Assembly: GCA_963827275.1 (NCBI GenBank)
Contig: CAWHAA010000005.1
Coordinates: 32,001 to 96,000, forward strand
Direction: 5' to 3'
DNA length: 64,000 bases
Origin: an uncultured Spirochaetota bacterium
GTDB lineage: Bacteria > Spirochaetota > UBA4802 > UBA5550
The notes under the pieces were generated by a model. It had not been told where the DNA came from. It did not search any database and was given only the letters and a program-made list of their open reading frames with translations. This document shows, piece after piece, positions 7,542 to 28,168 of the stretch. The translations under genes and the position numbers were made by a program. Every line of letters begins with the position of its first letter. Within the stretch, counting starts at the first letter, position 1.

Positions 7542-8663
7542 TCACAACGGGCTCCGGATGCCCTTAAGCTGCGGATCATAGACCTTTGTATATATCGAAG
7601 TCGTGGTTATGTTCTTATGGCCGAGCAGCGCCTGTATGTGCCGAAGCGATATGCCGTTCTCGAGCAGGTGCGTGGCAAATGTATGCCGGAGGTCATGCGG
7701 CGACGCCTTTTTATTGATGCCGGCCTCCCTGAGCGCCCTCTCCAGCACCTTCTGCACTGTCCTTCCGGAAAGGGCATGGTGCCTTCCCTGCCTGTCCGTG
7801 CCGGACGAAAGGAATATGAACTCGTCACCACGCTTCCCATCCATAAACCGTCTCAGGTCATCGACAATCTTATCGGAAAAAATGGTGATGCGGTCTTTTT
7901 TCCCCTTCCCCTCCTTCACGTGAATCGACAGGCGCTCACAATCGACGTCCCGCACCCTCAGGCTGAGCAACTCGGAGAGCCTGAGCCCGGACGAGTAAAT
8001 AAGCGCGATCATTGTCCGGTGCTTCAGGTTTTTTATGCTGTCCAATATTCTCGCAATCTCGCCCCGGGTAAACACCACCGGAAGGTGCTTCGAATTCCGC
8101 ACTCCTTCAACAAACGAGAGGTCGATTGTCATGTTCAACATGTTATTAAAATAATACGCGAGCGCGAACCTGTACACTCGTACCGTCGATGCGGATGCTT
8201 CCCTGTCATTATTCAGATAAAGAAAAAACGCGCGGAAATCTGCATGATCCATATCGTCAATGTGTTTATTTTTTTTTGCCATGCTCCAGGCATGGATCAT
8301 TCGCACCGCGCTTAAATAAATTTTTATGGTTTTCCGCGAATATCGTTTCAACTTGAGCGTTTCTTCAAACTCTGTATACTGCCGCGGCAGTGACATCGGT
8401 TGCGCCACACTATTCCCGGACGCAGACACAACGGCCTTATCATTATCCTCATTTGGAAACCATGTTTCGATCTCTTTAAAAGCATTACGATATACACCGA
8501 GCGTTTTTTGAAAATAATCGCGCACCAGCAGAAAATCCCCGTAGCTAATTCTACTCCTGTTTCTTTCAAAAAACTCCATAATATTTTGGTTAGATATAAA
8601 CATTGCCTTTTTCCATGAATATTTCTCCAGCAACATCCCCAATATTCCATTTTCCATTCGCAT
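7542..8663 (-). CDS. Integron-like site-specific tyrosine recombinase lacking the canonical IntI insertion (start could lie up to 8744)
   Basis: N-terminal SAM-like domain (LKRYSRKTIKIY); full catalytic set in GLRLSE, GKGKKDR, HDLRHTFATHLLE, LLGH and IYT; divergent from the cassette array. Confidence 0.9.
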   Translation of the reverse strand: MRMENGILGMLLEKYSWKKAMFISNQNIMEFFERNRSRISYGDFLLVRDYFQKTLGVYRNAFKEIETWFPNEDNDKAVVSASGNSVAQPMSLPRQYTEFEETLKLKRYSRKTIKIYLSAVRMIHAWSMAKKNKHIDDMDHADFRAFFLYLNNDREASASTVRVYRFALAYYFNNMLNMTIDLSFVEGVRNSKHLPVVFTRGEIARILDSIKNLKHRTMIALIYSSGLRLSELLSLRVRDVDCERLSIHVKEGKGKKDRITIFSDKIVDDLRRFMDGKRGDEFIFLSSGTDRQGRHHALSGRTVQKVLERALREAGINKKASPHDLRHTFATHLLENGISLRHIQALLGHKNITTTSIYTKVYDPQLKGIRSPL

Positions 8664-8765
8664 CACCCCCCACATGTTTTCAACTACCATATCAGACCAT
8701 GATAATAAACGAATGGGAGGTTCGTTTAATAAAACATTATTCAATAAATTATGAATTTTTTCTTA

Positions 8766-8794
8766 TTGACTTTCGGCTCGCCTAACAGTAGCCT
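8766..8794 (+). promoter_or_regulatory. Candidate Pc-like promoter reading into the array
   Basis: TTGACT-17 bp-TAGCCT, about 30 bp upstream of the first cassette. Confidence 0.55.
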
Positions 8795-8833
8795 TAAAAA
8801 ATCATTAAGAAATTCGGACAATTTTAGTTAAAC
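8795..8833 (+). other. attI-like site, crossover G/TTAAAC at 8827/8828
   Basis: The repeated cassette sequence begins exactly at TTAAAC with no attC upstream; context AATTCGGACAATTTTAG/TTAAAC. Confidence 0.75.
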
Positions 8834-9300
8834 GCCATTTCGAGCGGCGGCCGCGGTTTTTTTGTTATAAATAAAAGAAAAAAATAGGGTTGGCTTTTCT
8901 TTCGATCATATAATAATTAAGGCAATAATCTTTTCGTTCGGTTGCAGCTTAACATTACGCGGCCGCCTCTGGGCTCGCAGGTCTCTCAGTATCGTTTTAT
9001 TGGGTCTTTCTGTTGATTCATAGATATGGGATAACCGACTGACGATATTGGTATGCAACTACTGTCGGTTGCAATACATCGCATAAAGCTTTAACTGGCA
9101 GGTCCTGCGATCCCAGTCGAAACGGCGCTTAACAAAGCATGGGGCGCTGCGCGCGGCCACGAAAATTTAGACGCTGTGGCCGCGCTTGGCCTCGCGCCTT
9201 TCCGCCAGCGGCGGTACTGATTGGCGGATGTTCTAACGCACCGCCACTGGCGGGGCGCTCGGCACACCGCCCTGCGGGCGGCGTCGCCCATGCTTGGACG
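8828..9300 (+). repeat. ORF-less structured cassette, copy 1 (variant A)
   Basis: Near-identical to the units at 9301, 10838, 11310, 15024 and 19074. Confidence 0.9.
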
Positions 9301-9306
9301 TTAAAC
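9127..9306 (+). repeat. attC-like site 1 (180 bp)
   Basis: GCTTAAC-A-AAGCATGGG...CCCATGCTT-GGAC-GTTAAAC. Confidence 0.85.
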
Positions 9307-9772
9307 GCCATTTCGAGCGGCGGCCGCGGTTTTTTTGTTATGAATAAAAGAAAAAAGAGGGTTGGCTTTTCTTTCGATCATATAATAATTAAGGCAATAG
9401 TCTTTTCGTTCGGTTGTAGCTTAACATTACGCGGCCGCCTCTGGGCTCGCAGGTCTCTCAGTATCGTTTTATTGGGTCTTTCTGTTGATTCATAGATATG
9501 GGATAACCGACTGACAATATTGGTGTGCAACTATTGTCGGTTGCACTACATCGCATAAAGCCTTAACAGACAGGTCCTGCGATCCCAGTCGAAACGGCGT
9601 TTAACAAAGCATGGGGCGCTGCGCGCGGCCACGAAAATTTAGACGCTGTGGCCGCGCTTGGCCTCGCGCCTTTCCGCCAGCGGCGGTGCTGATTGGCGGA
9701 TGTTCTAACGCACCGCCACTGGCGGGGCGCTCGGCACACCGCCCTTCGGGCGGCGTCGGCCATGCTTGGACG
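9301..9772 (+). repeat. ORF-less structured cassette, copy 2 (variant B)
   Basis: Direct repeat of 8828-9300 with diagnostic substitutions. Confidence 0.9.
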
Positions 9773-9778
9773 TTAAGC
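9599..9778 (+). repeat. attC-like site 2 (180 bp)
   Basis: GTTTAAC...GTTAAGC. Confidence 0.85.
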
Positions 9779-9891
9779 GCAATACAGCGCTGGCTTTGGG
9801 TTGGCTTTATGGTTGGTCCGGCCTCCTGCCGGCCTTTAATTATGAATTTCATTTTTAAAATATTCTTTTTCATTATTATAGGTTTTTATAT

Positions 9892-10605
9892 ATGAAAAGA
9901 TTAATTACTATTCTATCAATAACTTTCACTTTAATTTATTGTGAAAAATCTTATTCTAATTATTATCTGGGTCCTTATATATCTGTAGCTGTAGGTCAAA
10001 TGGCTCATACACAATCTTCAATTCGAGAAGTTTATGATAATTATATTTTTGGCGGAGGTGGAATCTTCCAAACATCGATTTATCGACGAGGTTTATATAA
10101 TTATAGATTAAATTTTTGTTTCGAAAAGATTTATATACCACATACGACCAAACTTGGAACTGATTTTAGAAATACAATTCGAGGAAATTTAATTAATACA
10201 ATTGCTTATTCAATTTATAAAAAAAGGAATTATAATTTATGGATCGGGCCGCAAATCGGTCTTCATATTTTATGGGGCGACAATTATCTAAGTGATAATA
10301 AATATAATAAATTGAATACGATCCTCATTTCATCAATAATAATGAATCCTGAACTACCACTAATCATTTTACTATATTCTTCGAATAATTATGTGAAATT
10401 TACTGATTTTATTTTTAGTTTTGCTCCGGAAATTGGCATTGATATAAATGCAACAGACTTTTTAATTATATCATTGGAAAGTGGATTGAGAGTAGGTATT
10501 CATTTGCCAACAAATAAAATATCTAGCTCTGTTACATTGTATAGATTTGAAGGATTTTTTAATCTTTCATTTTTATTTAGAATTAACAAAGAAGAAAATA
10601 CATAA
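9892..10605 (+). CDS. Cassette-encoded hypothetical exported protein, possibly an outer-membrane beta-barrel
   Basis: Signal-peptide-like N-terminus; alternating aromatic/hydrophobic strands; single ORF in cassette 9773-10837. Confidence 0.65.
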   Translation: MKRLITILSITFTLIYCEKSYSNYYLGPYISVAVGQMAHTQSSIREVYDNYIFGGGGIFQTSIYRRGLYNYRLNFCFEKIYIPHTTKLGTDFRNTIRGNLINTIAYSIYKKRNYNLWIGPQIGLHILWGDNYLSDNKYNKLNTILISSIIMNPELPLIILLYSSNNYVKFTDFIFSFAPEIGIDINATDFLIISLESGLRVGIHLPTNKISSSVTLYRFEGFFNLSFLFRINKEENT

Positions 10606-10663
10606 TTTTATTATGCCGCCGCCGTCCTGACGGCGGCAACTTGAACTGGGAGCGCTGTACTGC

Positions 10664-10843
10664 GCTTAACAAAGCATGGGACGCTGCGCGCGGCCACGAA
10701 AATTTAGACGCTGTGGCCGCGCTTGGCCTCGCGCCTTTCCGCCAGCGGCGGTGCCGATTGGCGGATGTTCTAACGCACCGCCACTGGCGGGGCGCTCGGC
10801 ACACCGCCCTTCGGGCGGCGTCGCCCATGCTTGAACGTTAAAC
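10664..10843 (+). repeat. attC-like site 3 (180 bp)
   Basis: GCTTAAC...GTTAAAC. Confidence 0.85.
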
Positions 10844-11309
10844 GCCATTTCGAGCGGCGGCCGCGGTTTTTTTGTTATAAATAAAAGAAAAAAGAGGGTT
10901 GGCTTTTCTTTCGATCATATAATAATTAAGGCAATAGTCTTTTCGTTCGGTTGCAGCTTAACATTACGCGGCCGCCTCTGGGCTCGCAGGTCTCTCAGTA
11001 TCGTTTTATTGGGTCTTTCTGTTGATTCATAGATATGGGATAACCGACTGACGATATTGGTATGCAACTACTGTCGGTTGCAATACATCGCATAAAGCTT
11101 TAACTGGCAGGTCCTGCGATCCCAGTCGAAACGGCGCTTAACAAAGCATGGGGCGCTGCGCGCGGCCACGAAAATTTAGACGCTGTGGCCGCGCTTGGCC
11201 TCGCGCCTTTCCGCCAGCGGCGGTACTGATTGGCGGATGTTCTAACGCACCGCCACTGGCGGGGCGCTCGGCACACCGCCCTTCGGGCGGCGTCGCCCAT
11301 GCTTGGACG
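10838..11309 (+). repeat. ORF-less structured cassette, copy 3 (variant A); its attC-like site spans 11136-11315
   Basis: Direct repeat of 8828-9300. Confidence 0.9.
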
Positions 11310-11781
11310 TTAAACGCCATTTCGAGCGGCGGCCGCGGTTTTTTTGTTATGAATAAAAGAAAAAAGAGGGTTGGCTTTTCTTTCGATCATATAATAATTA
11401 AGGCAATAGTCTTTTCGTTCGGTTGTAGCTTAACATTACGCGGCCGCCTCTGGGCTCGCAGGTCTCTCAGTATCGTTTTATTAAGTCTTTCTGTTGATTC
11501 ATAGATATGGGATAACCGACTGACAATATTGGTGTGCAACTATTGTCGGTTGCACTACATCGCATAAAGCCTTAACAGACAGGTCCTGCGATCCCAGTCG
11601 AAACGGCGTTTAACAAAGCATGGGGCGCTGCGCGCGGCCACGAATATTTAGACGCTGTGGCCGCGCTTGGCCTCGCGCCTTTCCGCCAGTGGCGGTACTG
11701 ATTGGCGGATGTTCTAACGCACCGCCACTGGCGGGGCGCTCGGCACACCGCCCTTCGGGCGGCGTCGCCCATGCTTGGACG
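11310..11781 (+). repeat. ORF-less structured cassette, copy 4 (variant B); its attC-like site spans 11608-11787
   Basis: Direct repeat of 9301-9772. Confidence 0.9.
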
Positions 11782-12491
11782 TTAAGCGCAATACAGCGGC
11801 TTTATTTTTTTGCTTTATTCTGGGGCCGGCCTCCTGCCGGACTATTCTTAAAGAAAATGCTTTTTTATTAATGTCCTGGAAGTCTATATCCACCTTTTCC
11901 ACTCAATTCTTGTAAGAGTGTAGAGATATTTTTTTATTATTAAAGAAATACTAAATAAAATATTCTGAAAAATAGCTCAATCTGTTCTCTTTTAGCTAAG
12001 ACGCAAGAGTAGTCTTTTTGATTTATTTTTTTATGTTTTTCTTGACCAGTATTCTCATGTGCATATATATAATTCTGTATTAAAATACTTTTTAAATATT
12101 AATACAAAAGAAAATGTTTGGACATTTGTTCGCCGTGAATTTATTGTACTGAAACGTAAGAGCATACTTTTTTAATTTATTATTTTCTTGGCTTATTCTT
12201 AACCGTAATAGTTATCTATTTTTTACATACTTCAGTATAAATATTATTTTTTTGCTGTAAGTGTATTTGCCGCCGCCGTCCTGACGGCGGCAACTTGAAC
12301 TGATAGCGCTGTACTGCGCTTAACAAAGCATGGGGCGCTGCGCGCGGCCACGAAAATTTAGACGCTGTGGCCGCGCTTGGCCTCGCGCCTTTCCGCCAGT
12401 GGCGGTGCCGATTGGCGGATGTTCTATCGCACCGCCGCTGGCGGGGCGCTCGGCACACCGCCCTTCGGGCGGCGTCGCCCATGCTTGGACG
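11782..12491 (+). other. Second type of ORF-less cassette (AT-rich core); its attC-like site spans 12318-12497
   Basis: No credible ORF; ends are shared with cassette 9773-10837. Confidence 0.8.
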
Positions 12492-12524
12492 TTAGGCGCA
12501 ATTTGGTTGATATTTAATAATATT

Positions 12525-13034
12525 ATGACAAATTTATTATCCTTAAAAGAAATAGAAAGCGAAGTAAATAATCTTGCAAGATTGATAAATGCACCAAAAG
12601 ATTATTTGCCAACATTTGGCTATACAAATGATTTTGCACAACCTCATATTGAGATAAATTATAATCAGTATCACTATGTAATTGTCGAGCGTGGCCAAGA
12701 ATTTGAAAGAAAATCAACGGAAAATATTCATGAACTTTTATATTGGATATTTGAATCAATAACATTTAATATGGCTATTGATTATGAATTTAAAAATAGA
12801 ATTGAAGATCTTGATTCTAGACGTATTGCTTTTAAAAAACAAGAAGAATTATTAAATCTACTTAATCCAGATTGGAAGAATACATTAGAAAATAAACATA
12901 AATTAATATTAGAAAAACATCCTTTTGATGACTTATCTGGTTTAAGGGCAACATATTGTAGGGAGTTGAGAGAAAAAGGATATTGTGAAGATGATATAAC
13001 TAAAAAGGCTTATGAAAAATATCCTTTGCCTTGA
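12525..13034 (+). CDS. Imm63-like immunity protein (cassette)
   Basis: PHIE...YHYVIVERGQEFERKST...ELLYWIF...DSRRIAF pattern, recognised from memory. Confidence 0.7.
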   Translation: MTNLLSLKEIESEVNNLARLINAPKDYLPTFGYTNDFAQPHIEINYNQYHYVIVERGQEFERKSTENIHELLYWIFESITFNMAIDYEFKNRIEDLDSRRIAFKKQEELLNLLNPDWKNTLENKHKLILEKHPFDDLSGLRATYCRELREKGYCEDDITKKAYEKYPLP

Positions 13035-13046
13035 CAACCAAACTGC

Positions 13047-13220
13047 GCATAACAAAGCATAGCCGCTCCGCTCCTCGCTCGCTAAGGCTCGCTGCGGTGC
13101 TCGGCCTCGCGCTTATCCCGCCAGCTGCGGCGGTGATTTGGGGAGGGTTTTGAGCCGCCTTGCTGGCGGGGCGCTCGGCAACCTGGCTTCGCCAGGTTCG
13201 GCTATGCTGAGACGTTAGGC
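13047..13220 (+). repeat. attC-like site (174 bp)
   Basis: GCATAAC-AA-AGCATAGCCG...CGGCTATGCT-GAGAC-GTTAGGC. Confidence 0.85.
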
Positions 13221-13298
13221 GCCATTTCTGGCTGGCTTTTTTATTTCCTCGCCATCCATGGCTCGGAATTATTATCATATTTTATCAGGAGGACATTT

Positions 13299-13883
13299 AT
13301 GGGTCTAATTGTTCATTCATTAGAAAACATACCTCAATCTTCAAATAGGGATTATATAATATATTTACTCGATTATGGCTGGAGTGAACCAATTGGAAAA
13401 GCTCTTAATGATAATTTTGATCATATGGCTAATATTGCAGCAAATAATCGAGCTGTAATTATTAAGGGAACTAGATTAGGTGATTTTGCAAACGAAGTTT
13501 TTTCTTGGCATCATATAAATAATATTGATGCCGATGACATTCTTCCTGCATTATTAATTACCAATAAACATCCCGTATATTTTAAAGATTATGAGTTTGG
13601 ATATCGCCAAAAAAAGGGATTATATAGAGACACCAAAGATGATGATTTAAAATTAATTCTAATACCTTTTAAAAAGTTTTGTAAAACAACAACTGAGGTA
13701 ATTTCTTTAATCGAAAAAGTATTTTCTGATATAATTAACAAAAAGGATTTATCAAATTTTTCTGTAGCAAAAGAAATGAAAAAAGGAATATGTTCTGCAA
13801 TTGTAGACGCTATAATACTTGAGCCTAATTTTTCCGGAATTGGTTTTAGTTTTAATAAATTCAGGAGTTATTTAAAAACTTAA
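13299..13883 (+). CDS. Cassette-encoded hypothetical protein
   Basis: 194-aa ORF with a strong RBS (AGGAGG); family not recognised. Confidence 0.8.
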   Translation: MGLIVHSLENIPQSSNRDYIIYLLDYGWSEPIGKALNDNFDHMANIAANNRAVIIKGTRLGDFANEVFSWHHINNIDADDILPALLITNKHPVYFKDYEFGYRQKKGLYRDTKDDDLKLILIPFKKFCKTTTEVISLIEKVFSDIINKKDLSNFSVAKEMKKGICSAIVDAIILEPNFSGIGFSFNKFRSYLKT

Positions 13884-13958
13884 AATTAACTTATTTGTAA
13901 TTACTCAAAAGTACATCCATGTACTTTTGAACTTTTTCGTTTTAATGCCAGAAACGGC

Positions 13959-14206
13959 GCCTAACAAAGCATAACCGCTCCGCTCCTCGCCCACTTCGCG
14001 GGCTGCGGTGCTCGGCCTCGCGCCTGGCCGCCTCCGTCGGTGCCGATTTGGGGATGATCTAAAGCACCGACTCCGGCGGCGCGCTCGGCTCATTTTTCGG
14101 CGCTTCTTAGTTTCAAATAAATTAGTACTTGCAAAATTGCTTACAACAGGATAGATAACTTTTCGCGGCCAGGCCTCAAAACGACGGTTATGCTTGGACG
14201 TTAAGC
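13959..14206 (+). repeat. attC-like site (248 bp)
   Basis: GCCTAAC-A-AAGCATAACCG...CGGTTATGCTT-GGAC-GTTAAGC. Confidence 0.8.
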
Positions 14207-14241
14207 GACATTGCCATTTTTTTATGTATTTGGAGTTATGA

Positions 14242-14863
14242 ATGATTCCATCAGAAAGACACCCAATTGTTTCATTCTTCCTTGATGCTTATTTCATTGA
14301 AACATTTTTAAATCTTATAAAAAAATTATATCTGCCGAACGAGTATTTTAATATATCTATAAGAATAATATTTAATGATAATATTCATATTTTACCATGC
14401 TTACTATTATAAAAAAACAAAATTCCGCACTATTGGCGAACTTATTACTGGAACCTATATAGATAGTGATGGTAATAAATATTTTCTTAATCCATTTTAT
14501 TTAAATCGTTTTATTTTATGGGTTCCAATGTTTCTCACCTTTGTTGGTTTAAAATCTGTAAATATAATTCAAATAAATGACTTAAAATTAATTTCATCAT
14601 TAATATTTATTGGCATTTTATTATTAACATATTTTTCATACATCATGTTAAATAGAGGATATGTTATCGGTTTAATTTTATTATTAATAATTTATGCTTC
14701 TTTAATTTTTAATGTAATATACAATAAAGGATTTATTATAAAATTATTTGATTGGGAATTAATAATAGAATTCACATTATTATTGTTATTTATAACAATA
14801 ATAATAGCATATTGGATTATAAGAATGAATAAATTTCAAAATATAAATGGCAACGTCGCTTAA
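14242..14863 (+). CDS. Cassette membrane protein, RDD-like N-terminus; apparent frameshift near 14373
   Basis: MIPSERHPIVSFFLDAYF from 14242 after RBS GGAG, continuing in another frame as YYYKKTKFRTIGELITG plus four TM segments; stop codon lies within the attC R'' box. Confidence 0.6.
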
Positions 14864-15029
14864 CACGGCGTTCACGCTCCGCTCCTCGGGGCTTCGCCCC
14901 TGCGGTGCTCGGCTTCGCGCCTCGCCCGCCGGTTTCGGCGGTTTTCGGAGGAGTGTTCTGAGCCGTTTCACCGGCGGGGGCGCTCAGCAACCTGGCTTCG
15001 CCAGGTTCGTAAACGCCGGAACGTTAAAC
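14858..15029 (+). repeat. attC-like site (172 bp)
   Basis: GCTTAAC-A-CGGCGTTCACG...CGTAAACGCCG-GAAC-GTTAAAC. Confidence 0.85.
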
Positions 15030-15495
15030 GCCATTTCGAGCGGCGGCCGCGGTTTTTTTGTTATAAATAAAAGAAAAAAGAGGGTTGGCTTTTCTTTCGA
15101 TCATATAATAATTAAGGCAATAGTCTTTTCGTTCGGTTGCAGCTTAACATTACGCGGCCGCCTCTGGGCTCGCAGGTCTCTCAGTATCGTTTTTTTGGGT
15201 CTTTCTGTTGATTCATAGATATGGGATAACCGACTGACGATATTGGTATGCAACTACTGTCGGTTGCAATACATCGCATAAAGCTTTAACTGGCAGGTCC
15301 TGCGATCCCAGTCGAAACGGCGCTTAACAAAGCATGGGGCGCTGCGCGCGGCCACGAAAATTTAGACGCTGTGGCCGCGCTTGGCCTCGCGCCTTTCCGC
15401 CAGCGGCGGTACTGATTGGCGGATGTTCTAACGCACCGCCACTGGCGGGGCGCTCGGCACACCGCCCTGCGGGCGGCGTCGCCCATGCTTGGACG
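15024..15495 (+). repeat. ORF-less structured cassette, copy 5 (variant A); its attC-like site spans 15322-15501
   Basis: Direct repeat of 8828-9300. Confidence 0.9.
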
Positions 15496-15547
15496 TTAGG
15501 CGAAAAAACGCCAAAATATAAGTCGAGGTAAAAAGGAAATTTATATT

Positions 15548-18223: not shown

Positions 18224-18487
18224 ATGTTCTCAGTTAAAATATCAAAAAAGGCTATTAAGGGCATTCATAAAATGCCCATTAAAATTCAAGAAAGAATGAA
18301 TGTCCTTCTTAAAGATCTACGTGCAAAAGGACCCATGCGATATGAATGGCCAAATTTTAGTAAATTAGATGAAAATCTGTATCATTGTCATTTAGCTCAC
18401 AAATGGATCGCATGCTGGAAATATGAAAAACATACAATCATTATAGAGGTTTATTATGCAGGCTCACGTGAAAACGCCCCATATTAA
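18224..18487 (+). CDS. RelE-like toxin (toxin-first TA cassette 1)
   Basis: 87-aa basic protein ending IIIEVYYAGSRENAPY, upstream of an XRE-HTH gene. Confidence 0.7.
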   Translation: MFSVKISKKAIKGIHKMPIKIQERMNVLLKDLRAKGPMRYEWPNFSKLDENLYHCHLAHKWIACWKYEKHTIIIEVYYAGSRENAPY

Positions 18488-18824: not shown

Positions 18825-18900
18825 CTATTTTTAAGATATTGCCCTGCCCTCGCCCGTCCTGGACTCGGGCAGTAAATACTTATACTATTTTTTCCACGGC

Positions 18901-19079
18901 GCTTAACACGGCGTTCACGCTCCGCTCCTCGGCGGCTTATTGGCGCCTGCGGTGCTCGGCTTCGCGCCTTGCCCGCCGGTTTCGGCGGTTTTCAGAGGAG
19001 TGTTTTGAGCCGCCTCACCGGCGGGCGCGCTCAGCAACCTGGCCTGCGGCCAGGTTCGTAAACGCCGGAGACGTTAAAC
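18901..19079 (+). repeat. attC-like site (179 bp)
   Basis: GCTTAAC-A-CGGCGTTCACG...CGTAAACGCCG-GAGAC-GTTAAAC. Confidence 0.85.
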
Positions 19080-20482
19080 GCCATTTCGAGCGGCGGCCGC
19101 GGTTTTTTTGTTATGAATAAAAGAAAATAAATAAGGTTGGCTTTTCTTTCGATCATATAATAATTAAGGTGTAATAGACTCGATTTAATCTGACACTCTT
19201 CCGATAAATGGAGCAGAAAATGCTCTGAATAATTATACGGAGGAGTACATGACAACAGAACAGAAAGTCATCAGGAACAAAATGGGGTTATTAAACCTCG
19301 CAGAGCAGATTGGGAATGTCAAAAAAGCATGTCACATTATGGGATATTCCCGAGACAGTTACTACCGGCTAAAGGAACTTTATGATACTGGTGGTGAAGA
19401 AGCGTTAAAAGAAATCAGCAGAAAAAAAGCTAATATAAAGAATCGTGTTGATCCAAGTGTTGAAACTGCAGTTAACAGCATTGCAATTGAGTATCCCGCA
19501 TTTGGACAGGTTCGGGCTTCTAATGAACTGAGAAAACAGGGGATATTTGTCTCACCTACCGGAGTAAGAAGCATATGGCTCCGTAATGATCTTGAAACCA
19601 TGAAGAAGCGGCTCAAGGCACTTGAGGCCAAGGTCGCTCAAGATGGAATCATTCTCACGGAATCACAGCTTGCCGCATTAGAGAAAGCCAAAGAGGAAAA
19701 GGAAGCTCATGGTGAGATTGTATCTGAACATCCTGGTTATCTGGGTTCGCAGGACACAATGTATGTAGGAACGGTCAAAGGTGTTGGCCGGATATACCAG
19801 CAGACTTTTATAGACACGTATTGTAAGGTGGCTTTTGCAAAGTTATACAATATGAAAACACCAATTACCTCTGCCGACATATTGAACGACAGGGTTATAC
19901 CGTTTTATGAAAACAGCAGCATTAAGCTGATCCGAGTATTGACGGATCGTGGTACCGAATATTGCGGGAAAATGGAAAGTCATGACTATGAACTGTTTCT
20001 TTCGATTGAGGATATTGAGCACACAAAGACAAAGACGCGGCATCCTCAAACAAATGGAATATGCGAAAGATTTCATCGAACCATTCAAGATGAATTTTAT
20101 CGCATAGCATTTAGAAAGAAAATTTACAACACTCTTGATGAACTTCAGAAGGATCTTGACATATGGATTGTTCAATATAATAATGAGAGACCGCATAGTG
20201 GAAAATATTGTTATGGCAAAACACCGATAGATACGTTCAAGGATTCGTTAGTGCTTGCAAAAGAAAAACTGCTAAACTTTAACTGACAGGCAGTTTGGAA
20301 GTGATTGGTGAGTGTCAGATGAAGTTCAGAGTTTTACAATTAAGGCAATAATCTTTTCGTTCGGTTGCAGCTTAACATTACGCGGCCGCCTCTGGGCTCG
20401 CAGGTCTCTCAGTATCGTTTTATTGGGTCTTTCTGTTGATTCATAGATATGGGATAACCGACTGACGATATTGGTATGCAAC
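19074..20482 (+). repeat. ORF-less structured cassette, copy 6, interrupted by IS481 and truncated by IS3
   Basis: Repeat sequence is present at 19074-19169 and 20339-20482. Confidence 0.85.
19170..20338 (+). mobile_element. IS481-family element (transposase 19249-20286)
   Basis: TGT...ACA ends with imperfect IRs sharing ATCTGACACT; ATTAAGG duplicated on both sides; TDRGTEY and TNGICERFHRT motifs. Confidence 0.93.
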
Positions 20483-21681
20483 TGATCCTACCCCACAATT
20501 CGACCAGTTTCAAGTTTAGTTTTCTCGATCACTAACATATCATTATATTGTTTTGGCGTCATCCCTTTTAATCTCTTTTGAGGTCTTTCCTCGTTATATT
20601 CTCTCCACCATTCATGAATAATCTCTCTGGCTGTACTCAGTTTTTTAAAATAATGAGCACTGAGACATTCATTCCGAAATGTTCCATTAAAACTTTCTAT
20701 GTGGCAATTATCTGATGGCTTGCCGGGCCTTGTGAAAATTATTTTAATCCCCTTTTCATAGCACCAACGGTCGAGTTCCTGGCTTCTAAATTCAGGACCA
20801 TTGTCACATTGTATAAATTCTGGATACCCAAAGGATTCACATGCTCTTTCAAGTAGTTCAGAAACATCCTTACCCGTTATTGAAAATCCAGTATGAATAA
20901 GTGGCGAATGATTCGTTACAGGGTCAATCGCTGTCAGTATTTTGAGATTCTTTTTAAAGCCCACCGAGTCATGAATGAAATCTAAAGCCCATATGACGCC
21001 AGGTTCATTCGGCAATTCAACGGGTGATCGTTCTAATGAAGCTATCTTTTTCCGACGTTTCCGCGCTCGTAATTGCAGCCCATGCTCTTTATATATCCTT
21101 TCTGTACGCTTATGATTAATCAGTATCCCTTTTTGCCTCAGCTTGAGCTGTATCATTCCGCAGCCATATTTTGAATTTTTTGAAAGGATCGAATCTATCT
21201 CTCCAATGATTCGTGCGTCATCATTTGGCTGCGGACTATATAAAAATGTAGAACGAGCCATGCAAGAAACCTTGCATGATCGTCGTATCGAAAACCCGAA
21301 GCTACTCATCAGATAGCTTACTGCCTCTCTCTTCACTCCGGGTCGCAGAACTTTTTTATGATCTCCTTCTGTGCCATGTTATCCAGGGATAAATCGGCAA
21401 CCAGTTTCTTTAATCGTGTATTTTCATCTTCAAGTAGTCGCAATCGAACAATTTCCTGAGAGCTCATATCTCCATATTTGCGCTTCCAGATATAAAAGGA
21501 GTTCTCACTAATGCCGTGTTCTCGGGCGATATCCTTTACCTTTTTTCCCGCCTTATGCTCACCAAGGATCCTGACAATCTGCTCTTCTGAGAATCGTTTT
21601 TTCATTTTAACCTCATTAGTCTTGATTATTTATCGGTTAAAACTAAACTATCTCGTGGTACAAATTTAAGGGGTGGGATCA
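20483..21681 (-). mobile_element. IS3-family element, copy 2 (encodes proteins identical to copy 1)
   Basis: Same IRs and identical orfA/orfB translations; flanks come from two different cassettes. Confidence 0.95.
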
Positions 21682-21689
21682 AAACCCAT

Positions 21690-22142
21690 ATGAAAATACT
21701 TATAAAACTCCTGCCATTTATATTAGGTGGTGCCTTAGTTATTCAATCTTCACTAAATAAATCAATTGCCCAATCAAAAGGCTTAAGCACAGCATTAGTC
21801 ATAAATGGATTAATTGTTGTATTCTGTTCATTAATAATATTTATTTTATCATATTTTTTCCCACATCACTTCTCGGAAATTATTACTTATAACAACAATA
21901 ATTTGATATTTAAATGGTGGTATATAATTCCTGGTTTTTTAGGATTTTGTGCATTATTAATTCTTCCAATTGGAATTATGAAAATTGGTGCCTTACCAAT
22001 TTTTCTTGGAGTAATTGCTGGGCAAATAATCGTAAGTATTATATATGATTTTTATTTTGAAAATATTTCAATTAATTTAATTCGTGTATCAGGAGCCTTA
22101 TTAACTTTTATTGGAGCCTTTTTGGTAGTTTGGAAAAGATGA
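21690..22142 (+). CDS. DMT-superfamily (YdcZ/DUF606-like) small transporter (cassette)
   Basis: Five TM segments; QSSLN, WWYIIPGFLG, GQIIVSIIYD, RVSGALL. Confidence 0.75.
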   Translation: MKILIKLLPFILGGALVIQSSLNKSIAQSKGLSTALVINGLIVVFCSLIIFILSYFFPHHFSEIITYNNNNLIFKWWYIIPGFLGFCALLILPIGIMKIGALPIFLGVIAGQIIVSIIYDFYFENISINLIRVSGALLTFIGAFLVVWKR

Positions 22143-22317
22143 ATAATTATTCAAATCACAAGTAATAACCAACAAATAACTAATAACTTGACAAAATATG
22201 TATTTATTATTATAGAATATATAAATTACATGCAAAATATTATTTTTTTTTACCTTAATGTTGCTTTTCGCCATCCATGGCTCAAAGCAAATATGCCTTA
22301 ATGTGTATGGCCACTTC

Positions 22318-22455
22318 ACCTAACAAAGCATAGCCGCTGCGCGCGGGAATACCGCGCTTGGCCTCCGCGCCAAGATATGAAGACGGCGCTACGGCACATT
22401 TTCACCTCCGCGAGTACGCTCCGGTGAAAACGTCGGCTATGCTTGGACGTTATAC
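22318..22455 (+). repeat. attC-like site (138 bp)
   Basis: ACCTAAC-A-AAGCATAGCCG...CGGCTATGCTT-GGAC-GTTATAC. Confidence 0.85.
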
Positions 22456-22515
22456 GCCATGGCAAACTTTTCGCCTGCCATCCATGGCGGGCGTGGTATT
22501 TCATAATAAAATATG

Positions 22516-22544
22516 TTGACAAGTAACCCTTATTTGGTTACATT
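22516..22544 (+). promoter_or_regulatory. TA cassette promoter with palindromic operator
   Basis: TTGACA-17 bp-TACATT overlapped by GTAACC-cttattt-GGTTAC. Confidence 0.75.
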
Positions 22545-22549
22545 GCATT

Positions 22550-22813
22550 ATGTATAAAGTAGTAATTACAAAAAGCACCCTCAAAGGCATTGAAAAAATG
22601 CCTAAATTTTCACAATTAGCAATGGGGAACTTAGTTGATGATCTTAAGGAGTGTGGCCCTATTCAAAAACACTGGGCTAATTTTAGTAAAATTGGAAAGA
22701 ATAAATTCCATTGCCATTTATCATATAAATGGGTTGCATGCTGGGAATTTTATGAAAATAATATATTAATTGAGGTTTATTATGCAGGTTCACGTGAAAA
22801 CGCCCCGTATTAA
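22550..22813 (+). CDS. RelE-like toxin (TA cassette 2)
   Basis: Paralogue of 18224-18487 with the same EVYYAGSRENAPY end. Confidence 0.7.
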   Translation: MYKVVITKSTLKGIEKMPKFSQLAMGNLVDDLKECGPIQKHWANFSKIGKNKFHCHLSYKWVACWEFYENNILIEVYYAGSRENAPY

Positions 22814-23147
22814 AATTGATATTAAAGGCGAAATTTCTAAAAAACACCTTTCTTTGCTGAAAAAAGAATATGGTGAAAATCTTCATTTAATTAATAAAGA
22901 TGATAAGTCTATTGATGTCTTTAAAACTGAATGGTACAAAAATATTAAATCTCAAATGACCCCTGGGACAAATTTAAAAGTTTATAGAATAAATAAAGGA
23001 TTAACCCAAGCTCAGTTAGGGGAATTACTTGGTGGCATTCCTAAACAGCATATATCAAATATGGAAAACGGGAGAAGGCCCATTAGTTTAAAAATGGCAA
23101 AAATTTTAGCCAGATTCTTTAAGGTATCAGTTGATAAATTTGTTTAA
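22782..23147 (+). CDS. XRE-family HTH antitoxin
   Basis: LTQAQLGELLGGIPKQHISNMENGRRPIS; paralogue of 18456-18824. Confidence 0.8.
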   Translation: MQVHVKTPRIKIDIKGEISKKHLSLLKKEYGENLHLINKDDKSIDVFKTEWYKNIKSQMTPGTNLKVYRINKGLTQAQLGELLGGIPKQHISNMENGRRPISLKMAKILARFFKVSVDKFV

Positions 23148-23222
23148 TTTTTTATTACCTTTGGCCCGCCTCCGCACGTCCTGTGCTTCGGCGGTAGAGC
23201 TTTTTTACTTCATTGCCACGGC

Positions 23223-23528
23223 GTATAACACGGCGTTCACGCTCCGCTCCTCGGCGGACTTGGGCCGCCTGCGGTGCGCTGATCAGGATGATCGAGTGTC
23301 GAGCCGCAACAGGATGTTGCGAAAAGGCTCGACCTCGGCCTCCCGCCTTTCCGCCTCCGTCGGTGCCGATTCGGGGATAATCTAAAGCACCGACTCCGGC
23401 GGGGCGCTCGGCTCATTTTTCGGCGCTTTTAAGTTTCAAATAAATTCTTCTTGCAAAAATGCTTATAACAGGCTAAATAACTTTTAGCAGCCAGGCCTCA
23501 AAACGACGGTTATGCTTGAACGCTATAT
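23223..23528 (+). repeat. Chimeric, probably inactive attC-like site (306 bp)
   Basis: GTATAAC-A-CGGCGTTCACG left arm paired with a CGGTTATGCTT-GAAC-GCTATAT right arm. Confidence 0.75.
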
Positions 23529-23599
23529 GCAATTGCCCCATTTTATATAGAATAGAAAAATATAGTATAAATATTACAAAAAAATTGTGCATATAAATT

Positions 23600-24355
23600 A
23601 TGTCTGTAGATTATAACCAACTATCAAAACAATATAAAAACTATAGAAGACCTGACACTCGGATTTTAAGGCAAATACAATATTATCTTCAAAATGCTCA
23701 ATGTATTTTAAATGTTGGAGCTGGTATTGGATCCTATGAGCCTGTAGATAGTAAAGTAGTCGCCATCGAACCATCTTTTGAAATGATTTCAAAAAGAGAT
23801 AATTCAAAAGCACTTTTGGTACAAGCAATTGCCGAAAAGCTGCCTTTTAAAAATAATATCTTTGATTGCTCCATGGCAATTTTAACAATACATCATTGGT
23901 CAAATGCAATTTCTGGTCTTAAAGAAATGATCAGAGTTACAAAATATAAAATTGTCTTATTTACTTGGATTGGATATGGCAATAACTTTTGGCTAGAGAA
24001 TTATATACCCGAAATTATTGGAATTGATATAAAATTATTTCCAACAATAGATGAACTTAAACGAATACTTGGAAATGTCATAGTTGAAATTGTTGAAATA
24101 CCTTATGATTGTACAGATGGATTCATGTGTGCCTATTGGAGAAGACCGGAAATGTATTTGGATCCAAATGTGCGGAAGGCCATATCTACTTTCTCACGCA
24201 TACCCGAAAATCCCGAGGGACTAAATAAACTACGAAAGGATATTGAAAGTGGCGAATGGTATAATAAGTACAGCTATTTGCTTGATAAAGAAACTATTGA
24301 TTTAGGATATAGATTAGTTATATCTGAAAACAAAGAATGGGGCAACTGCACATAA
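23600..24355 (+). CDS. Class I SAM-dependent methyltransferase (cassette)
   Basis: LNVGAGIGSYE, AEKLPF, LTIHHW; stop codon lies in the R'' box. Confidence 0.88.
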   Translation: MSVDYNQLSKQYKNYRRPDTRILRQIQYYLQNAQCILNVGAGIGSYEPVDSKVVAIEPSFEMISKRDNSKALLVQAIAEKLPFKNNIFDCSMAILTIHHWSNAISGLKEMIRVTKYKIVLFTWIGYGNNFWLENYIPEIIGIDIKLFPTIDELKRILGNVIVEIVEIPYDCTDGFMCAYWRRPEMYLDPNVRKAISTFSRIPENPEGLNKLRKDIESGEWYNKYSYLLDKETIDLGYRLVISENKEWGNCT

Positions 24356-24474
24356 CAAAGCACACCCGCTGCGCGCGGCCACAAGAAATGAAGCTGTGGC
24401 CGTGCTCGGCCTGCGGCACACCGCGCCTAAGGGAGGAAGACGGGCCCGGCGGCGGCTATGCTGGAACGTTGTTC
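24350..24474 (+). repeat. attC-like site (125 bp, partly degenerate)
   Basis: ACATAAC...GGAAC-GTTGTTC; core similar to the 18003-18125 site. Confidence 0.75.
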
Positions 24475-24515
24475 GAAACCCGGCGGTTTTGAAATTTGAG
24501 AGGAACTCTTTCATA

Positions 24516-25406
24516 ATGAAAAACTTCAAGTTTAAGAAAATCGATGCTTTTACAGATAAGTCATCTCATGGCAATCCGGCAGCTGGCATTTATTTAGATA
24601 ATCTTAATGATATTTCAGACATGGAAATGCTAACTATAGCCAGTGAACTTAAAGGTTTTGTCAGCGAAGTTGTATTTCTATTTCCAGAGAAGGATGGATA
24701 TTTTTTAAAATACTATTCTTCTGAATGTGAAGTTGAATTTTGCGGCCATGGAACTATTGCAATAATGTTTGATCTGATTAAAAATAGCCCGAATCTTTTA
24801 GATGAAAAAGTCATCAATATTAGAGTTAGAAACGAAAATCTTAAAATCTATAATCAAATTAATAATAATAACTCAATTTTTATAACTGCCCCAAACCCGA
24901 CGTATCATTCTTGTAATATTAATCATAATGATCTAATTTCTTGTCTAAATATTTCTTTAGATACAATTAATAGCAATCTGCCAATTGATATAATAAATGC
25001 CGGACTGAATACTCTAATTGTACCAATTATAAATCTTAATAAATGCCTTAATGTGAAGCCTGACCAAGAAGTTCTAAAATATTTCTGCCTGGACAATACT
25101 ATTGATATAATACATATCTTCACAAATGAAGTATCGAAAGGAACCAATAATTATCGAACAAGAGTTTTTGCTCCAAAGTATGGGTATTTGGAAGATCCGG
25201 CAACTGGTTCTGGCAATTCTGCCTTTGGGTATTATTTATTGAAAAATAACCTATGGGCTGGACAATTACTGAAAATTGAACAAAATAAAGAATATGAAAT
25301 GTCTAATTTGGTGAAATTAAATACGGTAATGTTAGATAATAAACTACGTGTTTTATTTGGCGGCTCCGCAACACTAAAAATAGATGGAGCATATACTTTA
25401 TATTAA
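24516..25406 (+). CDS. PhzF-family isomerase (cassette)
   Basis: IDAFT...GNPA, EVEFCGHGTIA, EDPATGSGN. Confidence 0.9.
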   Translation: MKNFKFKKIDAFTDKSSHGNPAAGIYLDNLNDISDMEMLTIASELKGFVSEVVFLFPEKDGYFLKYYSSECEVEFCGHGTIAIMFDLIKNSPNLLDEKVINIRVRNENLKIYNQINNNNSIFITAPNPTYHSCNINHNDLISCLNISLDTINSNLPIDIINAGLNTLIVPIINLNKCLNVKPDQEVLKYFCLDNTIDIIHIFTNEVSKGTNNYRTRVFAPKYGYLEDPATGSGNSAFGYYLLKNNLWAGQLLKIEQNKEYEMSNLVKLNTVMLDNKLRVLFGGSATLKIDGAYTLY

Positions 25407-25425
25407 GGAATTATCGCCGATATTC

Positions 25426-25550
25426 GCACAACATAGCATAGCCGATCCGCTCCCCGGCGGGCTTGGGCCTCCTGCGGTGCGCTGATCAGGGTGATCGAGT
25501 GTCGAGCCGCAACAGAAGGGTGCAGAAAGGCTCAACCTCGGCACTCGCGC
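25426..25550 (+). repeat. Truncated attC-like site (left half only)
   Basis: GCACAAC-ATAGCATAGCCG followed by the double-hairpin module; no matching right arm or GTT. Confidence 0.65.
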
Positions 25551-25599
25551 TTGCATCGCCATCCATGGCATCGAATAATAATAGACACGGGCCAATGTA

Positions 25600-26439
25600 A
25601 TGTTTAATGAACTACTTGAAATCAACAGACGGCCAAAACCATTTGAATATTATACTGCTCCAGAATTATGGACGGACGGGCACACCTCTCAAAAAATGCT
25701 GGAGTTTCATTTGAATGAATCAATTGATGTTTCATCAAGAAATATCAATTTCATCAACAAATCATCCGAATGGATAATAAGCCATTTCGGTCTTGATGCC
25801 GCATCCAAAATAATTGATTTTGGATGCGGCCCGGGACTTTATACCTCCCGTTTTGCCAGGAAGGGCATCCACGTAACCGGCATAGATTTTTCAAAGAGAT
25901 CAATTGAATACGCAAAGCAGGCCGCGCTGAACGAAAAACTTGACTGTGACTATATTTGCTGCAATTATCTTGATTTTAAATCATCGAATAAATTCAACCT
26001 GATAACCATGATCATGTGTGATTTTTGCGCTTTAAGTCATGATCAACGAAGGATCATGCTGGGTAAGTTCAAAAATATTTTAACACCAAATGGATCAATA
26101 CTGCTTGATGTCTATTCCATAAACTTTTACAATGCAAGTAAAGAAAAATCCATATATGAATTTAACCAGCAATCTAATTTTTGGTCAGCGGATGATTATT
26201 ATTCTTTTCAGAATACTTTTAAATATGATGACGAGAAAGTTATTCTTGATAAATATACAATTATTGAAAAATCACGAAAACGTGTTGTCTGCAATTGGCT
26301 GCAATGTTTCAGCGTTGATTCATTGAAGAAAGAATTCGAGGAAAATGGCCTGAAAATTATTGAAATATTTTCAGATGTATCAGGATCAGAATACAGACAG
26401 GACTCTTTGGAGATTGCGGTCGTAGCACGGACCATCTGA
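25600..26439 (+). CDS. Class I SAM-dependent methyltransferase
   Basis: IIDFGCGPGLY, GIDFSKRSI. Confidence 0.88.
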   Translation: MFNELLEINRRPKPFEYYTAPELWTDGHTSQKMLEFHLNESIDVSSRNINFINKSSEWIISHFGLDAASKIIDFGCGPGLYTSRFARKGIHVTGIDFSKRSIEYAKQAALNEKLDCDYICCNYLDFKSSNKFNLITMIMCDFCALSHDQRRIMLGKFKNILTPNGSILLDVYSINFYNASKEKSIYEFNQQSNFWSADDYYSFQNTFKYDDEKVILDKYTIIEKSRKRVVCNWLQCFSVDSLKKEFEENGLKIIEIFSDVSGSEYRQDSLEIAVVARTI

Positions 26440-26645
26440 TCTGCAGCCAGGCTCAACATCCGTGTTCCGCCTGCCTTGCGGCAGGCCCGCTTTCCGCGTA
26501 TAACGCGGCATCACCGCGCCGCTGCGCTCCCCGGCCCCTGGCGGCGCCGCCCGTTGTTTTACATTATGCGCAATGCCCGGTATACATTACCATGGCATCG
26601 CCGTCAGAATATAGTTGGCAATTCATACCACGGGAGGGGTCCTCC

Positions 26646-27422
26646 ATGAAAGTCACCGCATTTATCGGAAACGTCCGGAAGAAGTACACCTACGATGCCA
26701 CCGTGCAGCTTTTGGAAAAACTGCGGTCACACGGCGATATTGAATATGAAATAGTCATGCTGGGTGATTATCGACTGGGAATATGCAGGGGATGCAAGCA
26801 GTGCTTCGAAAAGGGGGAGGAGTGCTGCCCGCTGAAAGATGACAGGGACGTGCTTTTAGAAAAAATCAATAGCTCCGACGGGATTGTCCTGGCGTCCCCC
26901 AACTATTCTTTCAACGTATCAGGCCTCATGAAGGTGTTCCTTGACCGGCTTGGATTCATTTTCCACCGCCCCTGTTTTTTTGGCAAAGCCTACACCAGCG
27001 TCGTGGTCCAGGGGATATACAGGGGCAAAGAAATTTCCAAATACTTTAACTTCATCGGGAACGGGCTCGGGTTCACCGTGGTGAATGGCTGCTGTTTGAC
27101 GGCTATTGAGCCGATGACCGAAAAAGACCGGAAAACCTTCGACAGGGTCCTTGACCGGCTGAGCGGTAAATTCCATGCGGCACTGGCACGAAAAAAATAC
27201 CCGGCCCCGGGGCTTTTCAAATTATTCATATTCAGATACGCGCGGACAAGCATGAAATTGCTGCTTGACGATCGCAGCAGGGATTACGCGTATTATAAGA
27301 AAAACGGCTGGTTCGAATCCGAGTATTATTATCCGATACAATTAAACCCATTTAAAAAATTGGCCGGCAGGCTTTTTGACCGCATGACGGTCCTGACGAC
27401 ACAGACCGACCGGCAGTCATAA
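26646..27422 (+). CDS. Flavodoxin-like / NADPH-dependent FMN reductase family protein
   Basis: CRGCKQC...CPLKDD, DGIVLASPNY, MKVFLDR. Confidence 0.85.
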   Translation: MKVTAFIGNVRKKYTYDATVQLLEKLRSHGDIEYEIVMLGDYRLGICRGCKQCFEKGEECCPLKDDRDVLLEKINSSDGIVLASPNYSFNVSGLMKVFLDRLGFIFHRPCFFGKAYTSVVVQGIYRGKEISKYFNFIGNGLGFTVVNGCCLTAIEPMTEKDRKTFDRVLDRLSGKFHAALARKKYPAPGLFKLFIFRYARTSMKLLLDDRSRDYAYYKKNGWFESEYYYPIQLNPFKKLAGRLFDRMTVLTTQTDRQS

Positions 27423-27454
27423 CAGACCGCGAGGCAACAGCCAGAGGTGGTGCA

Positions 27455-28168
27455 ATGCACGCGAGCGATGTAATTATAAAGATCCGGCAGGAACTGAAGC
27501 GCAGCAGCGACAGGAAAAATACAGCTTCCGCCCGGAAATTTTTTAAAGAAAAAATCAAGCTGTATGGCGCAACAACCGCGGTGACAAGAAAAATCGGGAA
27601 AGAATACTTTAAAGAAATAAAAAATAAAAAGAAAAAATATATTTTCGGCCTGTGTGAAGAGCTCTGGCGATCAGGATACATGGAAGAATCATTTATCGCG
27701 TGCAACTGGTCGTATTATATCCGCGGGGATTACGAGCCGGGTGACATCAGGGTATTTAAAAAATGGGTCAATACATACGTCAGCAACTGGGCATCATGCG
27801 ATACCCTGTGCAATCATACTATCGGCGCGCTCCTGGAAATGTATCCCGGCCAGGTATCACAGCTGAAGCAATGGGCCCGGTCCAGGAACCGCTGGATGCG
27901 GCGGGCCGCTGCCGTGTCCCTCATCATCCCCGCCAGGCAGGGAAAATTCTTAAAGGATGTTATTGAGATCGCCGGGCTCCTGCTCGCGGACCGGGACGAC
28001 CTGGTGCAGAAAGGCTATGGGTGGCTGCTCAAGTCGGCCAGCAACGCGCACCGGAAAGAGATATTCGATTATATCATGAAAGAAAAAGCGGCGATGCCCA
28101 GGACGGCGTTACGGTATGCAATTGAAAAAATGCCGAAAGGGCTGAAGATGAAGGCCATGGCGAAATAA
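27455..28168 (+). CDS. AlkD-like DNA alkylation repair protein
   Basis: VSNWASCDTLC, WMRRAAAVS, DLVQKGYGWLLK, PRTALRYAIEK. Confidence 0.88.
   Translation: MHASDVIIKIRQELKRSSDRKNTASARKFFKEKIKLYGATTAVTRKIGKEYFKEIKNKKKKYIFGLCEELWRSGYMEESFIACNWSYYIRGDYEPGDIRVFKKWVNTYVSNWASCDTLCNHTIGALLEMYPGQVSQLKQWARSRNRWMRRAAAVSLIIPARQGKFLKDVIEIAGLLLADRDDLVQKGYGWLLKSASNAHRKEIFDYIMKEKAAMPRTALRYAIEKMPKGLKMKAMAK

Follow-up and report, generated by a model that had tools for sequence, protein, structure and literature searches.

A probable chromosomal integron in an uncultured Spirochaetota bacterium, headed by an integrase-like recombinase without the I2 additional domain

The window analysed here is a 64,000-nucleotide stretch from an uncultured Spirochaetota bacterium (assembly GCA_963827275.1, contig CAWHAA010000005.1, positions 32,001 to 96,000), in which a minus-strand tyrosine recombinase gene diverges from an attI-like junction and a row of plus-strand attC sites. 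We regard this element as quite probably a sedentary chromosomal integron of a non-canonical class, run by a recombinase that lacks the I2 additional domain of the integron integrase IntI. An earlier note on this DNA had recognised the layout of an integron with a divergent recombinase, and the attI-like junction together with 15 attC sites on one strand bears this out. Its broader proposal, a distinct class of cassette-shuffling recombinases that IntI-specific profiles would miss, finds support in profile, genome, locus and tree tests. In the mechanism we propose from sequence comparison, the short recombinase would move circular cassettes in and out of the array through site-specific recombination, with the attI-like site (G8827|TT) and the attC sites as its targets.

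The recombinase gene most likely spans 7542 to 8657 on the minus strand (371 residues, ATG at 8655-8657, stop included), because homologues of 365-375 residues start at Met30 of the listed open reading frame (ORF), which has 400 codons (7542-8744, minus strand) and runs on to a TTG at 8744. The tyrosine recombinase fold and the R-K-H-R-H-Y active-site residues of IntI are both present. Profile scores reach 148 bits for PF00589 and 57 bits for PF13495, and the catalytic set, described earlier as complete, is indeed so: R255, K280, R353, H354, H376 and Y385 do not vary among 29 family members, at least 90% of which also keep H350. The predicted structure (mean predicted local distance difference test, pLDDT, 84.7) has IntI4 as its best Foldseek match (2A3V, E 3.5e-17). 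The C-terminal GIRSPL of the window recombinase aligns to GVLSPL of IntI4, and the TDRQGRHH motif, rightly called IntI-like in the earlier note, aligns to IntI4 positions 233-241.

The additional (I2) domain is the accepted signature of IntI and is required by detection tools. In the window recombinase it is absent, as the earlier note had claimed. The match to the IntI profile TIGR02249 scores 214.1 bits against a cut-off of 265 and falls into two pieces (profile positions 4-179 and 229-313), skipping positions 180-228; NF011946 gives 151 bits against 435, which leaves the protein below the cut-offs of both IntI-specific profiles. Alignment to the IntI4 structure pairs query residues 127-297 with 10-177 and 315-400 with 233-317, and the insert region holds 17 residues in the window recombinase versus 55 in IntI4; the alignment with archaeal XerA is unbroken. 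The 26 residues after KDR are those given before (ITIFSDKIVDDLRRFMDGKRGDEFIF). Insert length was measured across an alignment of 356 relatives as the distance from the Arg of KDR to the His of HxLRH. This distance is 62 residues in the window protein and 63 in the genome's own Xer, versus 98 in the 26 canonical IntI, which include IntI1, cyanobacterial IntI and Spirochaetota IntI; the other 327 relatives span 54-67, with one outlier at 95. That outlier (P0208) carries 95 residues in the insert region yet groups with an insert-free clade from the candidate phyla radiation (CPR) and not with canonical IntI; it may represent an independent insertion or a misplacement. Among the Xer-type profiles, NF040815 (XerA) scores 217.1 bits, only just under its cut-off of 220, and the XerC/XerD family cut-offs are not reached (TIGR02224, 179.5 against 335; TIGR02225, 163.8 against 329.6).

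The N-terminal extension, previously put at about 90 residues, measures ~95. Residues 1-64 (8466-8657, minus strand) form a predicted four-helix domain that is specific to the clade (pLDDT 83-95), and the linker behind it is partly disordered in the model, with residues 70-85 below pLDDT 50. Fold matches to the domain are weak (Z 5.9-4.1) and fall repeatedly on core-binding domains of tyrosine recombinases, namely those of XerA, Cre, Brujita Int, XerD and IntI4; its structure-atlas scores of 0.87 are weak as well. The modelled fold thus provides a lead that this domain may serve as a second core-binding domain.

The attC sites of the window were located by a loose pattern scan and then by a covariance model built on 19 sites, three from the window and 16 from seven other genomes. 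The model reports 15 sites, all on the plus strand and all within 9123 to 24478, and no attC match in the remaining ~44 kilobases (kb) of the window. Each repeat of the array consists of an RYYYAAC box, an imperfect inverted repeat and a GTTRRRY box. The first site (9127-9306; 60.2 bits) is 180 nucleotides (nt) long, and its bottom strand folds at -68.5 kcal/mol (z -7.6). It is followed by sites at 9599-9778 (56.2 bits), 10664-10843 (61.8 bits), 11136-11315 (61.4 bits), 11608-11787 (62.8 bits), 12318-12497 (61.1 bits) and 13047-13220 (53.4 bits). The eighth site is the 248-nt attC at 13959-14206 (54.6 bits), and the ninth and tenth lie at 14858-15029 (52.2 bits) and 15322-15501 (60.7 bits). 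Site 11 (18003-18125, 123 nt) has the highest score in the window, 90.7 bits, with a fold z of -5.7; site 12 lies at 18901-19079 (56.4 bits) and site 13 at 22318-22455 (82.9 bits, fold z -5.4). Site 14 (23223-23528) is a weak hybrid (26.1 bits, E 1.3e-4) whose halves are of differing attC type and whose R' box reads GCTATAT; the 5' half belongs to the ACGGCGTTCACGC type, the 3' half to the GGTTATGCTT type, and the whole resembles a deletion or recombination product of two sites. Site 15 lies at 24350-24474 (70.2 bits). A last, truncated attC at 25426-25560 (plus strand) keeps its R''-L'' (5') half, lacks the L'-R' half and is unmatched by the covariance model; it marks the distal end of the array. 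Elsewhere in the genome, a solitary attC ~380 kb from the array (G000:C5:442051-442166, minus strand) scores 92.9 bits, the best among the 150 of 817 candidates that were scored.

Together these sites delimit a plus-strand array of ~16 cassettes (8828-25590) whose ORFs lie on the same strand. The array layout in the earlier note therefore stands; its count of 17-19 cassettes does not, since 15 attC sites and one truncated site give ~16. Nor does the array reach 28168 as claimed: no attC was found for any of the three ORFs at 25600-28168, which places the array end near 25.6 kb. A 65-nt GC-rich hairpin at 26498-26562, behind a methyltransferase gene, is flanked by GTATAAC and GTTTTAC; it has no covariance-model match and may be a terminator or a decayed attC.

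At the head of the array, the attI-like site (8797-8833, plus strand) has its predicted crossover between G8827 and T8828. Its left half (..AATTCRGACAATTTTA) is conserved in relatives, and the beginning of the first cassette supplies the right half. GTTAAAC begins at G8827, and what follows that base is identical to the start of a repeated 472-nt cassette, in agreement with the G/TT site noted before at 8827. The junction ..AATTCRGACAATTTTA|GTTRYRYGCMAT is present in all 16 loci that were read, 165-190 nt upstream of the start codon.

The repeated cassette also indicates where the units are cut. This ORF-less 472-nt cassette has five full copies (8828-9300, 9301-9772, 10838-11309, 11310-11781 and 15024-15495) and a partial copy from 19074. 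All five full copies carry the same 180-nt attC type on their 3' side, whereas the 5' neighbour is attI or an attC of differing type. The attC would thus belong to the 3' end of the cassette with the crossover at R' (G|TT), and we infer that strands are exchanged behind the G of the 3' GTT box, the position used in classical integrons. In 12 of the 15 cassettes, moreover, the complement of R'' is closer to the first bases of that cassette than to the R' of the site, with three ties and none worse, which is the footprint that would be expected of units cut at the conserved triplet.

The 472-nt cassette has features of its own. It carries a promoter-like sequence (TTGGCT, 16 nt, AATAAT), and its start consists of a GC-rich palindrome followed by a run of T. 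Versions that are ~95% identical occur in metagenome contigs of all four runs compared, from four studies. Possible roles are those of a mobile promoter and of a small-RNA cassette.

Transcription of the cassettes would probably start from a promoter between the recombinase gene and attI, and probably also from promoters in the repeated ORF-less cassette. The Pc-like candidate at 8766-8794 (plus strand; TTGACT, 17 nt, TAGCCT), proposed in the earlier note, faces the cassettes and fares unevenly. The consensus scan does not list it, but reading by eye shows a TTGA -35-like box at the corresponding position of nine related loci besides the window, and in most of the nine a TAnnnT -10-like hexamer follows, facing the cassettes. 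The consensus scan of 8500-9400 found no terminator-like site. A palindrome, CGAATGGGAGGTTCG, at 8710-8724, ~55 nt upstream of the start codon, is a candidate operator, and related ACGAAY-N7-TCG motifs occupy the same place upstream of the recombinase in relatives. A LexA/SOS box was considered for the CGAA-N7-TTCG palindrome and rejected, as lexA and recA of this genome showed no such motif in their upstream regions.

The attC sites are conserved as structures. In the 19 modelled sites, which come from eight genomes, 91.5% of the cells in the R and L stems are paired, versus 71.1% after shuffling and 25-38% when the partners are slid, and compensatory change occurs in 112 cells of the alignment versus 38 in shuffles. 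The L stems vary in sequence and remain 93.7-96.4% paired, with changes on both sides in 9 of 11 pairs. The bottom-strand folds of four window sites lie at z -1.7 to -7.6 relative to shuffles. The sites thus have the R'', L'', L' and R' boxes with invariant AAC and GTT, and the compensated stems, by which an integron attC is recognised. Because compensatory changes maintain the R and L stems, the window attC sites appear to be read by shape, and a folded single strand or a cruciform is their likely substrate.

In form, these sites depart from the canonical attC, which combines near-symmetric spacers with two extrahelical bases. Across 72 sites of these arrays, the R''-L'' spacer is 0-3 nt and the L'-R' spacer 4-7 nt, and the 3' spacer is longer by 2-4 nt in every one. 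The first 9-11 base pairs of the L stem are unbroken in most of the 72, the R''-L'' arm lacks the two extrahelical bases, and the sites are ~100-250 nt long with a branched centre. By comparison, the 31 attC sites measured next to canonical IntI, in three genomes from the same phylum, have equal spacers in 30 cases (mostly 2/2 or 3/3) and 3/4 in one, bulge two to three single bases from the R''-L'' arm at fixed places, and are mostly 63-67 nt long. I2 has been linked to the reading of extrahelical bases in the accessible text of Escudero (2020), citing MacDonald (2006). If I2 reads these bases, it is coherent that I2 and the bulges are missing together. We propose that the spacer asymmetry marks strand and polarity in place of the extrahelical bases, in which case the I2 helix would not be needed. 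This matched difference in site shape turns strand and polarity choice into a testable hypothesis.

The strongest competitor, which we consider improbable though worth weighing, is that the recombinase acts on double-stranded core sites of the Xer type, with the R boxes as binding arms, and that the hairpins serve another purpose, such as transcription termination between cassettes. The protein resembles XerA about as closely as it does IntI, its NF040815 score of 217.1 bits being close to the cut-off of 220, and it lacks the very domain whose acquisition is linked to the switch from double-stranded to single-stranded substrates in the text of Escudero (2020) available to us; yet the L stems change in sequence and stay paired, as a site read by structure predicts, the spacer asymmetry holds in 72 of 72 sites, and R'' and R' lie 100-250 nt apart and cannot make one double-stranded core site.

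Relatives of the recombinase are found with such arrays in other genomes too. Homologues of the window protein fall into dozens of protein clusters at 37-84% identity, and the short form with all catalytic residues is kept across 27 tree rows. Many homologues lie within ~1.5 kb of a contig end on the 5' side, as expected beside repeats. Where upstream DNA is available, 16 of 17 clade loci have attC sites upstream of the recombinase (covariance model, E 0.01 or better). The 75 attC matches at these 17 loci all lie upstream and on the opposite strand to the gene; 59 of them are outside the training set of the model. With the junction read in 16 of 16 loci, the association of homologues with cassette arrays, raised in the earlier note as a point to check, holds. 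Matches to the attC model occur in 29 of 41 genomes of the bacterial family, and the arrays differ between genomes.

The pairing extends beyond this clade. Of the 150 nearest cluster representatives, almost all match without interruption and have no insert, and their N-terminal extensions vary. A second short clade comprises recombinases of Bacteroidota, Ignavibacteriota, Gemmatimonadota and Spirochaetota, several of which have attC-like sites downstream and co-oriented with the gene, with the same spacer asymmetry when read by eye. At three CPR loci, single attC sites lie upstream of the recombinase. Related arrays, suspected earlier in other Spirochaetota or in Bacteroidota, are found in Spirochaetota loci, and the second short clade, several members of which have such sites, includes Bacteroidota. 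One complete genome of the same family has 46 attC matches, most of them in the ~96 kb directly downstream of an insert-free recombinase (L175, G310:C1:4328801-4427751). That recombinase is 40% identical to the window protein and is co-oriented with its attC sites, a second arrangement of the same attC family.

Other recombinases of the genome and phylum bear on who serves the array. Besides the window recombinase, this genome (92% complete) has two TIGR02249 matches, both Xer-like, and no canonical IntI over the TIGR02249 cut-off. A wider survey for canonical IntI gives 41 of 401 genomes in the phylum sample, 1 of 39 in the family and 0 of 14 among the other members of the genus; the short type (E 1e-50 or better) occurs in 12 of the 14 and 30 of the 39. 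A canonical IntI that might serve the array, which the earlier note named as a finding that would count against its proposal, was not found in this genome or in the 14 others of the genus. In five complete genomes of the phylum, a gene of the XerD kind always comes with one other Xer-type gene; to this pair, four of the genomes add the short type and one (G284) a canonical IntI. Given the separate Xer-like genes in this genome and in those five, the window recombinase is, to judge from sequence, not a housekeeping Xer.

It is also unlikely, and less probable than double-stranded exchange, that the array is a cluster of attC sites lacking an integron integrase (CALIN), or one served in trans by an unassembled canonical IntI, with the adjacent gene an unrelated Xer-type or mobile-element integrase. 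An assembly at 92% completeness leaves space for such an IntI, and sites of the attC family do occur elsewhere with no recombinase beside them. An unrelated integrase, however, does not account for a gene that stands at the head of the array and not inside it in 16 of 17 loci, divergent from all 75 attC matches, with the attI-like junction at a fixed distance in 16 of 16; nor does service by canonical IntI fit its presence in none of the 14 other genomes of the genus and in one of 39 of the family, or an attC shape unlike that beside canonical IntI in the same phylum.

The position of the recombinase was assessed in a careful tree of 108 sequences and 273 columns, rooted on 12 spirochaete XerC/D. 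Xer separates from the rest with support of 100/100, and so does a canonical IntI clade of 17 sequences that excludes the window protein; in the 356-row tree, the 26 canonical IntI likewise form a clade with support of 100. The window clade (27 rows) has support of 99/83 and is sister to a CPR clade with the same support. Low support (85/37) unites IntI with another short clade, and the short relatives from archaea are the closest to the Xer root. A constraint that keeps the 79 I2-less rows in one group lowers the log-likelihood by 2.72 units and is not rejected (approximately unbiased test, p-AU 0.43). With that p-AU and the 85/37 support, we do not claim that IntI is nested among the short recombinases; neither form is placed as the older, and an ancestral short form is not claimed. 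Since the window clade lies outside the 100/100 IntI clade, the sequences argue firmly against a recent loss of the insert from a canonical IntI. That the protein is nonetheless a decayed IntI stripped of its I2 region, and the array an immobile fossil, is very improbable: the SPL tail, the TDRQGRHH stretch and the structural match to IntI4 would suit it, as would two cassettes hit by insertion sequences, one hybrid attC and a truncated last site, but the short form persists with every catalytic residue through 27 tree rows and dozens of clusters at 37-84% identity, a recent deletion is excluded by the tree, and the arrays differ between genomes and include, in the window, a duplicated two-cassette block 100% identical over the 300 nt compared.

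An active integron run by the short recombinase remains the reading that we prefer, and several observations weigh against it. Firstly, the part of this genome that is missing (8%) could hold a canonical IntI, a reservation that applies to this genome alone. Sites of the attC family also occur away from any recombinase, as one solitary site in this genome and as arrays and solitary sites in two others (G328 and G092), so that adjacency is not obligatory, and one of the 17 loci (L126, with 1.86 kb of upstream DNA) is the only one without an attC match. The second hexamer of the promoter candidate matches the consensus at three of six positions, and the candidate falls below the threshold of the consensus scan. 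The match between R'' and the cassette start, taken by itself, cannot separate a crossover at R' from one at R''; it is the repeated cassette that decides. Covariation is the sole ground for proposing a single-stranded substrate. Finally, neither recombination products nor circular cassettes nor expression were seen. The metagenome contigs compared with the array come from other organisms, and the joints in them belong to other organisms or to repeats, so that they are not evidence of excision in this genome.

These contigs, from four runs of four studies, cover attC sites, the 472-nt cassette and insertion sequences, and hardly any coding part. The attC family, the 472-nt cassette and the insertion sequence thus occur elsewhere beside other neighbours. 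In the sequencing runs richest in window sequence, 18-25% of sampled words are shared, and no RNA run is among the runs listed as sharing window sequence.

In comparison with canonical integrons (the class 1 system of IntI1, and VchIntIA/IntI4 with its VCR sites, structure 2A3V), the window is alike in its divergent integrase, its attI, its cassettes ending in attC and the G|TT crossover; in a candidate promoter facing mostly promoterless cassettes; and in RYYYAAC/GTTRRRY boxes and sites that appear to be read by shape. The enzyme differs by the absent I2 (62 versus 98 residues) and by its extra N-terminal four-helix domain, and the sites by having no two bulged bases, a surplus of 2-4 nt on the other arm and a branched centre. 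The reverse-orientation integrons of Spirochaetota, as far as the accessible text of Ghaly (2022) describes them, share the phylum and the chromosomal cassette arrays. They have a full IntI, found in those 41 of 401 genomes and mostly in another family, whereas the window has the short type; and their attC sites, for the most part 63-67 nt long and bulged in the classical way, are found downstream of the gene, whereas the window recombinase gene points away from its array. The target of Xer proteins is one double-stranded dif site and not an array of structured sites. To XerC/XerD and to archaeal XerA (4A8E, 5HXY) the window recombinase is alike in KDR-HxLRH length, in its contiguous XerA alignment and in its near-threshold NF040815 score; it differs from them by the separate Xer-like genes of its genome and by the 100/100 split in the tree.

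Tools that depend on IntI profiles would, we infer, label the window array a CALIN. CALIN, in the part of Cury (2016) that was accessible, are attC clusters without an integron integrase; the window array has a dedicated recombinase and an attI-like site. Literature searches returned no description of integron integrases without the additional domain, a comparison in which the supplementary recombinases of Cury (2016) are not included. Four recombinases called 'intermediate between IntI and Xer' in the accessible text of that paper may include relatives of the short family.

A wider reading is more tentative, and we would give it a little less than an even chance: insertion-less recombinases may form a second widespread class of integron integrase, with asymmetric-spacer attC sites, in Spirochaetota, Bacteroidota, Ignavibacteriota, Gemmatimonadota, CPR bacteria and DPANN archaea, and classical IntI may be one specialised branch. 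If so, shape recognition of attC would predate I2, and many 'integrase-less' clusters would be complete integrons. A conserved I2-less family at the head of large, structured arrays would by itself imply that the I2 helix is not the sole way to read a folded attC and that integron surveys may undercount complete integrons and overcount orphan arrays. Living I2-less systems would also open the origin of integrons to study.

The contents of the array are those of an integron. The array region (8 to 26 kb) has a GC content of 33-47% versus ~60% in the flanks. Family searches of the cassette genes return Imm63, methyltransferases, PhzF and YdcZ, with several ORFs without a family, which is typical integron content. 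An Rfam scan of the window at gathering thresholds gave tRNA only, with no family for attC or for the ORF-less cassette. The two-cassette duplication described above corresponds to repeat D1.

Two cassettes are interrupted by insertion sequences. An IS3-family element (15869-17070, minus strand; HTH_Tnp_1 and rve; repeats D5 and D18) lies within cassette 11, and a second IS3-family copy (~20481-21682) within cassette 13. There is a further transposase gene besides these two copies, and together they disrupt the two cassettes.

The Imm63 immunity-protein domain (E 1.3e-24) is encoded in the cassette at 12330-13034, and a toxin gene is absent from the same cassette. Two other cassettes each carry a small ORF paired with an HTH_3 protein. 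In each (18224-18824 and 22550-23147), an 87-residue ORF overlaps the gene of an HTH_3 protein of 122-125 residues, in an arrangement like that of toxin-antitoxin or regulator pairs, and a 250-nt DNA stretch is 72% identical between the two.

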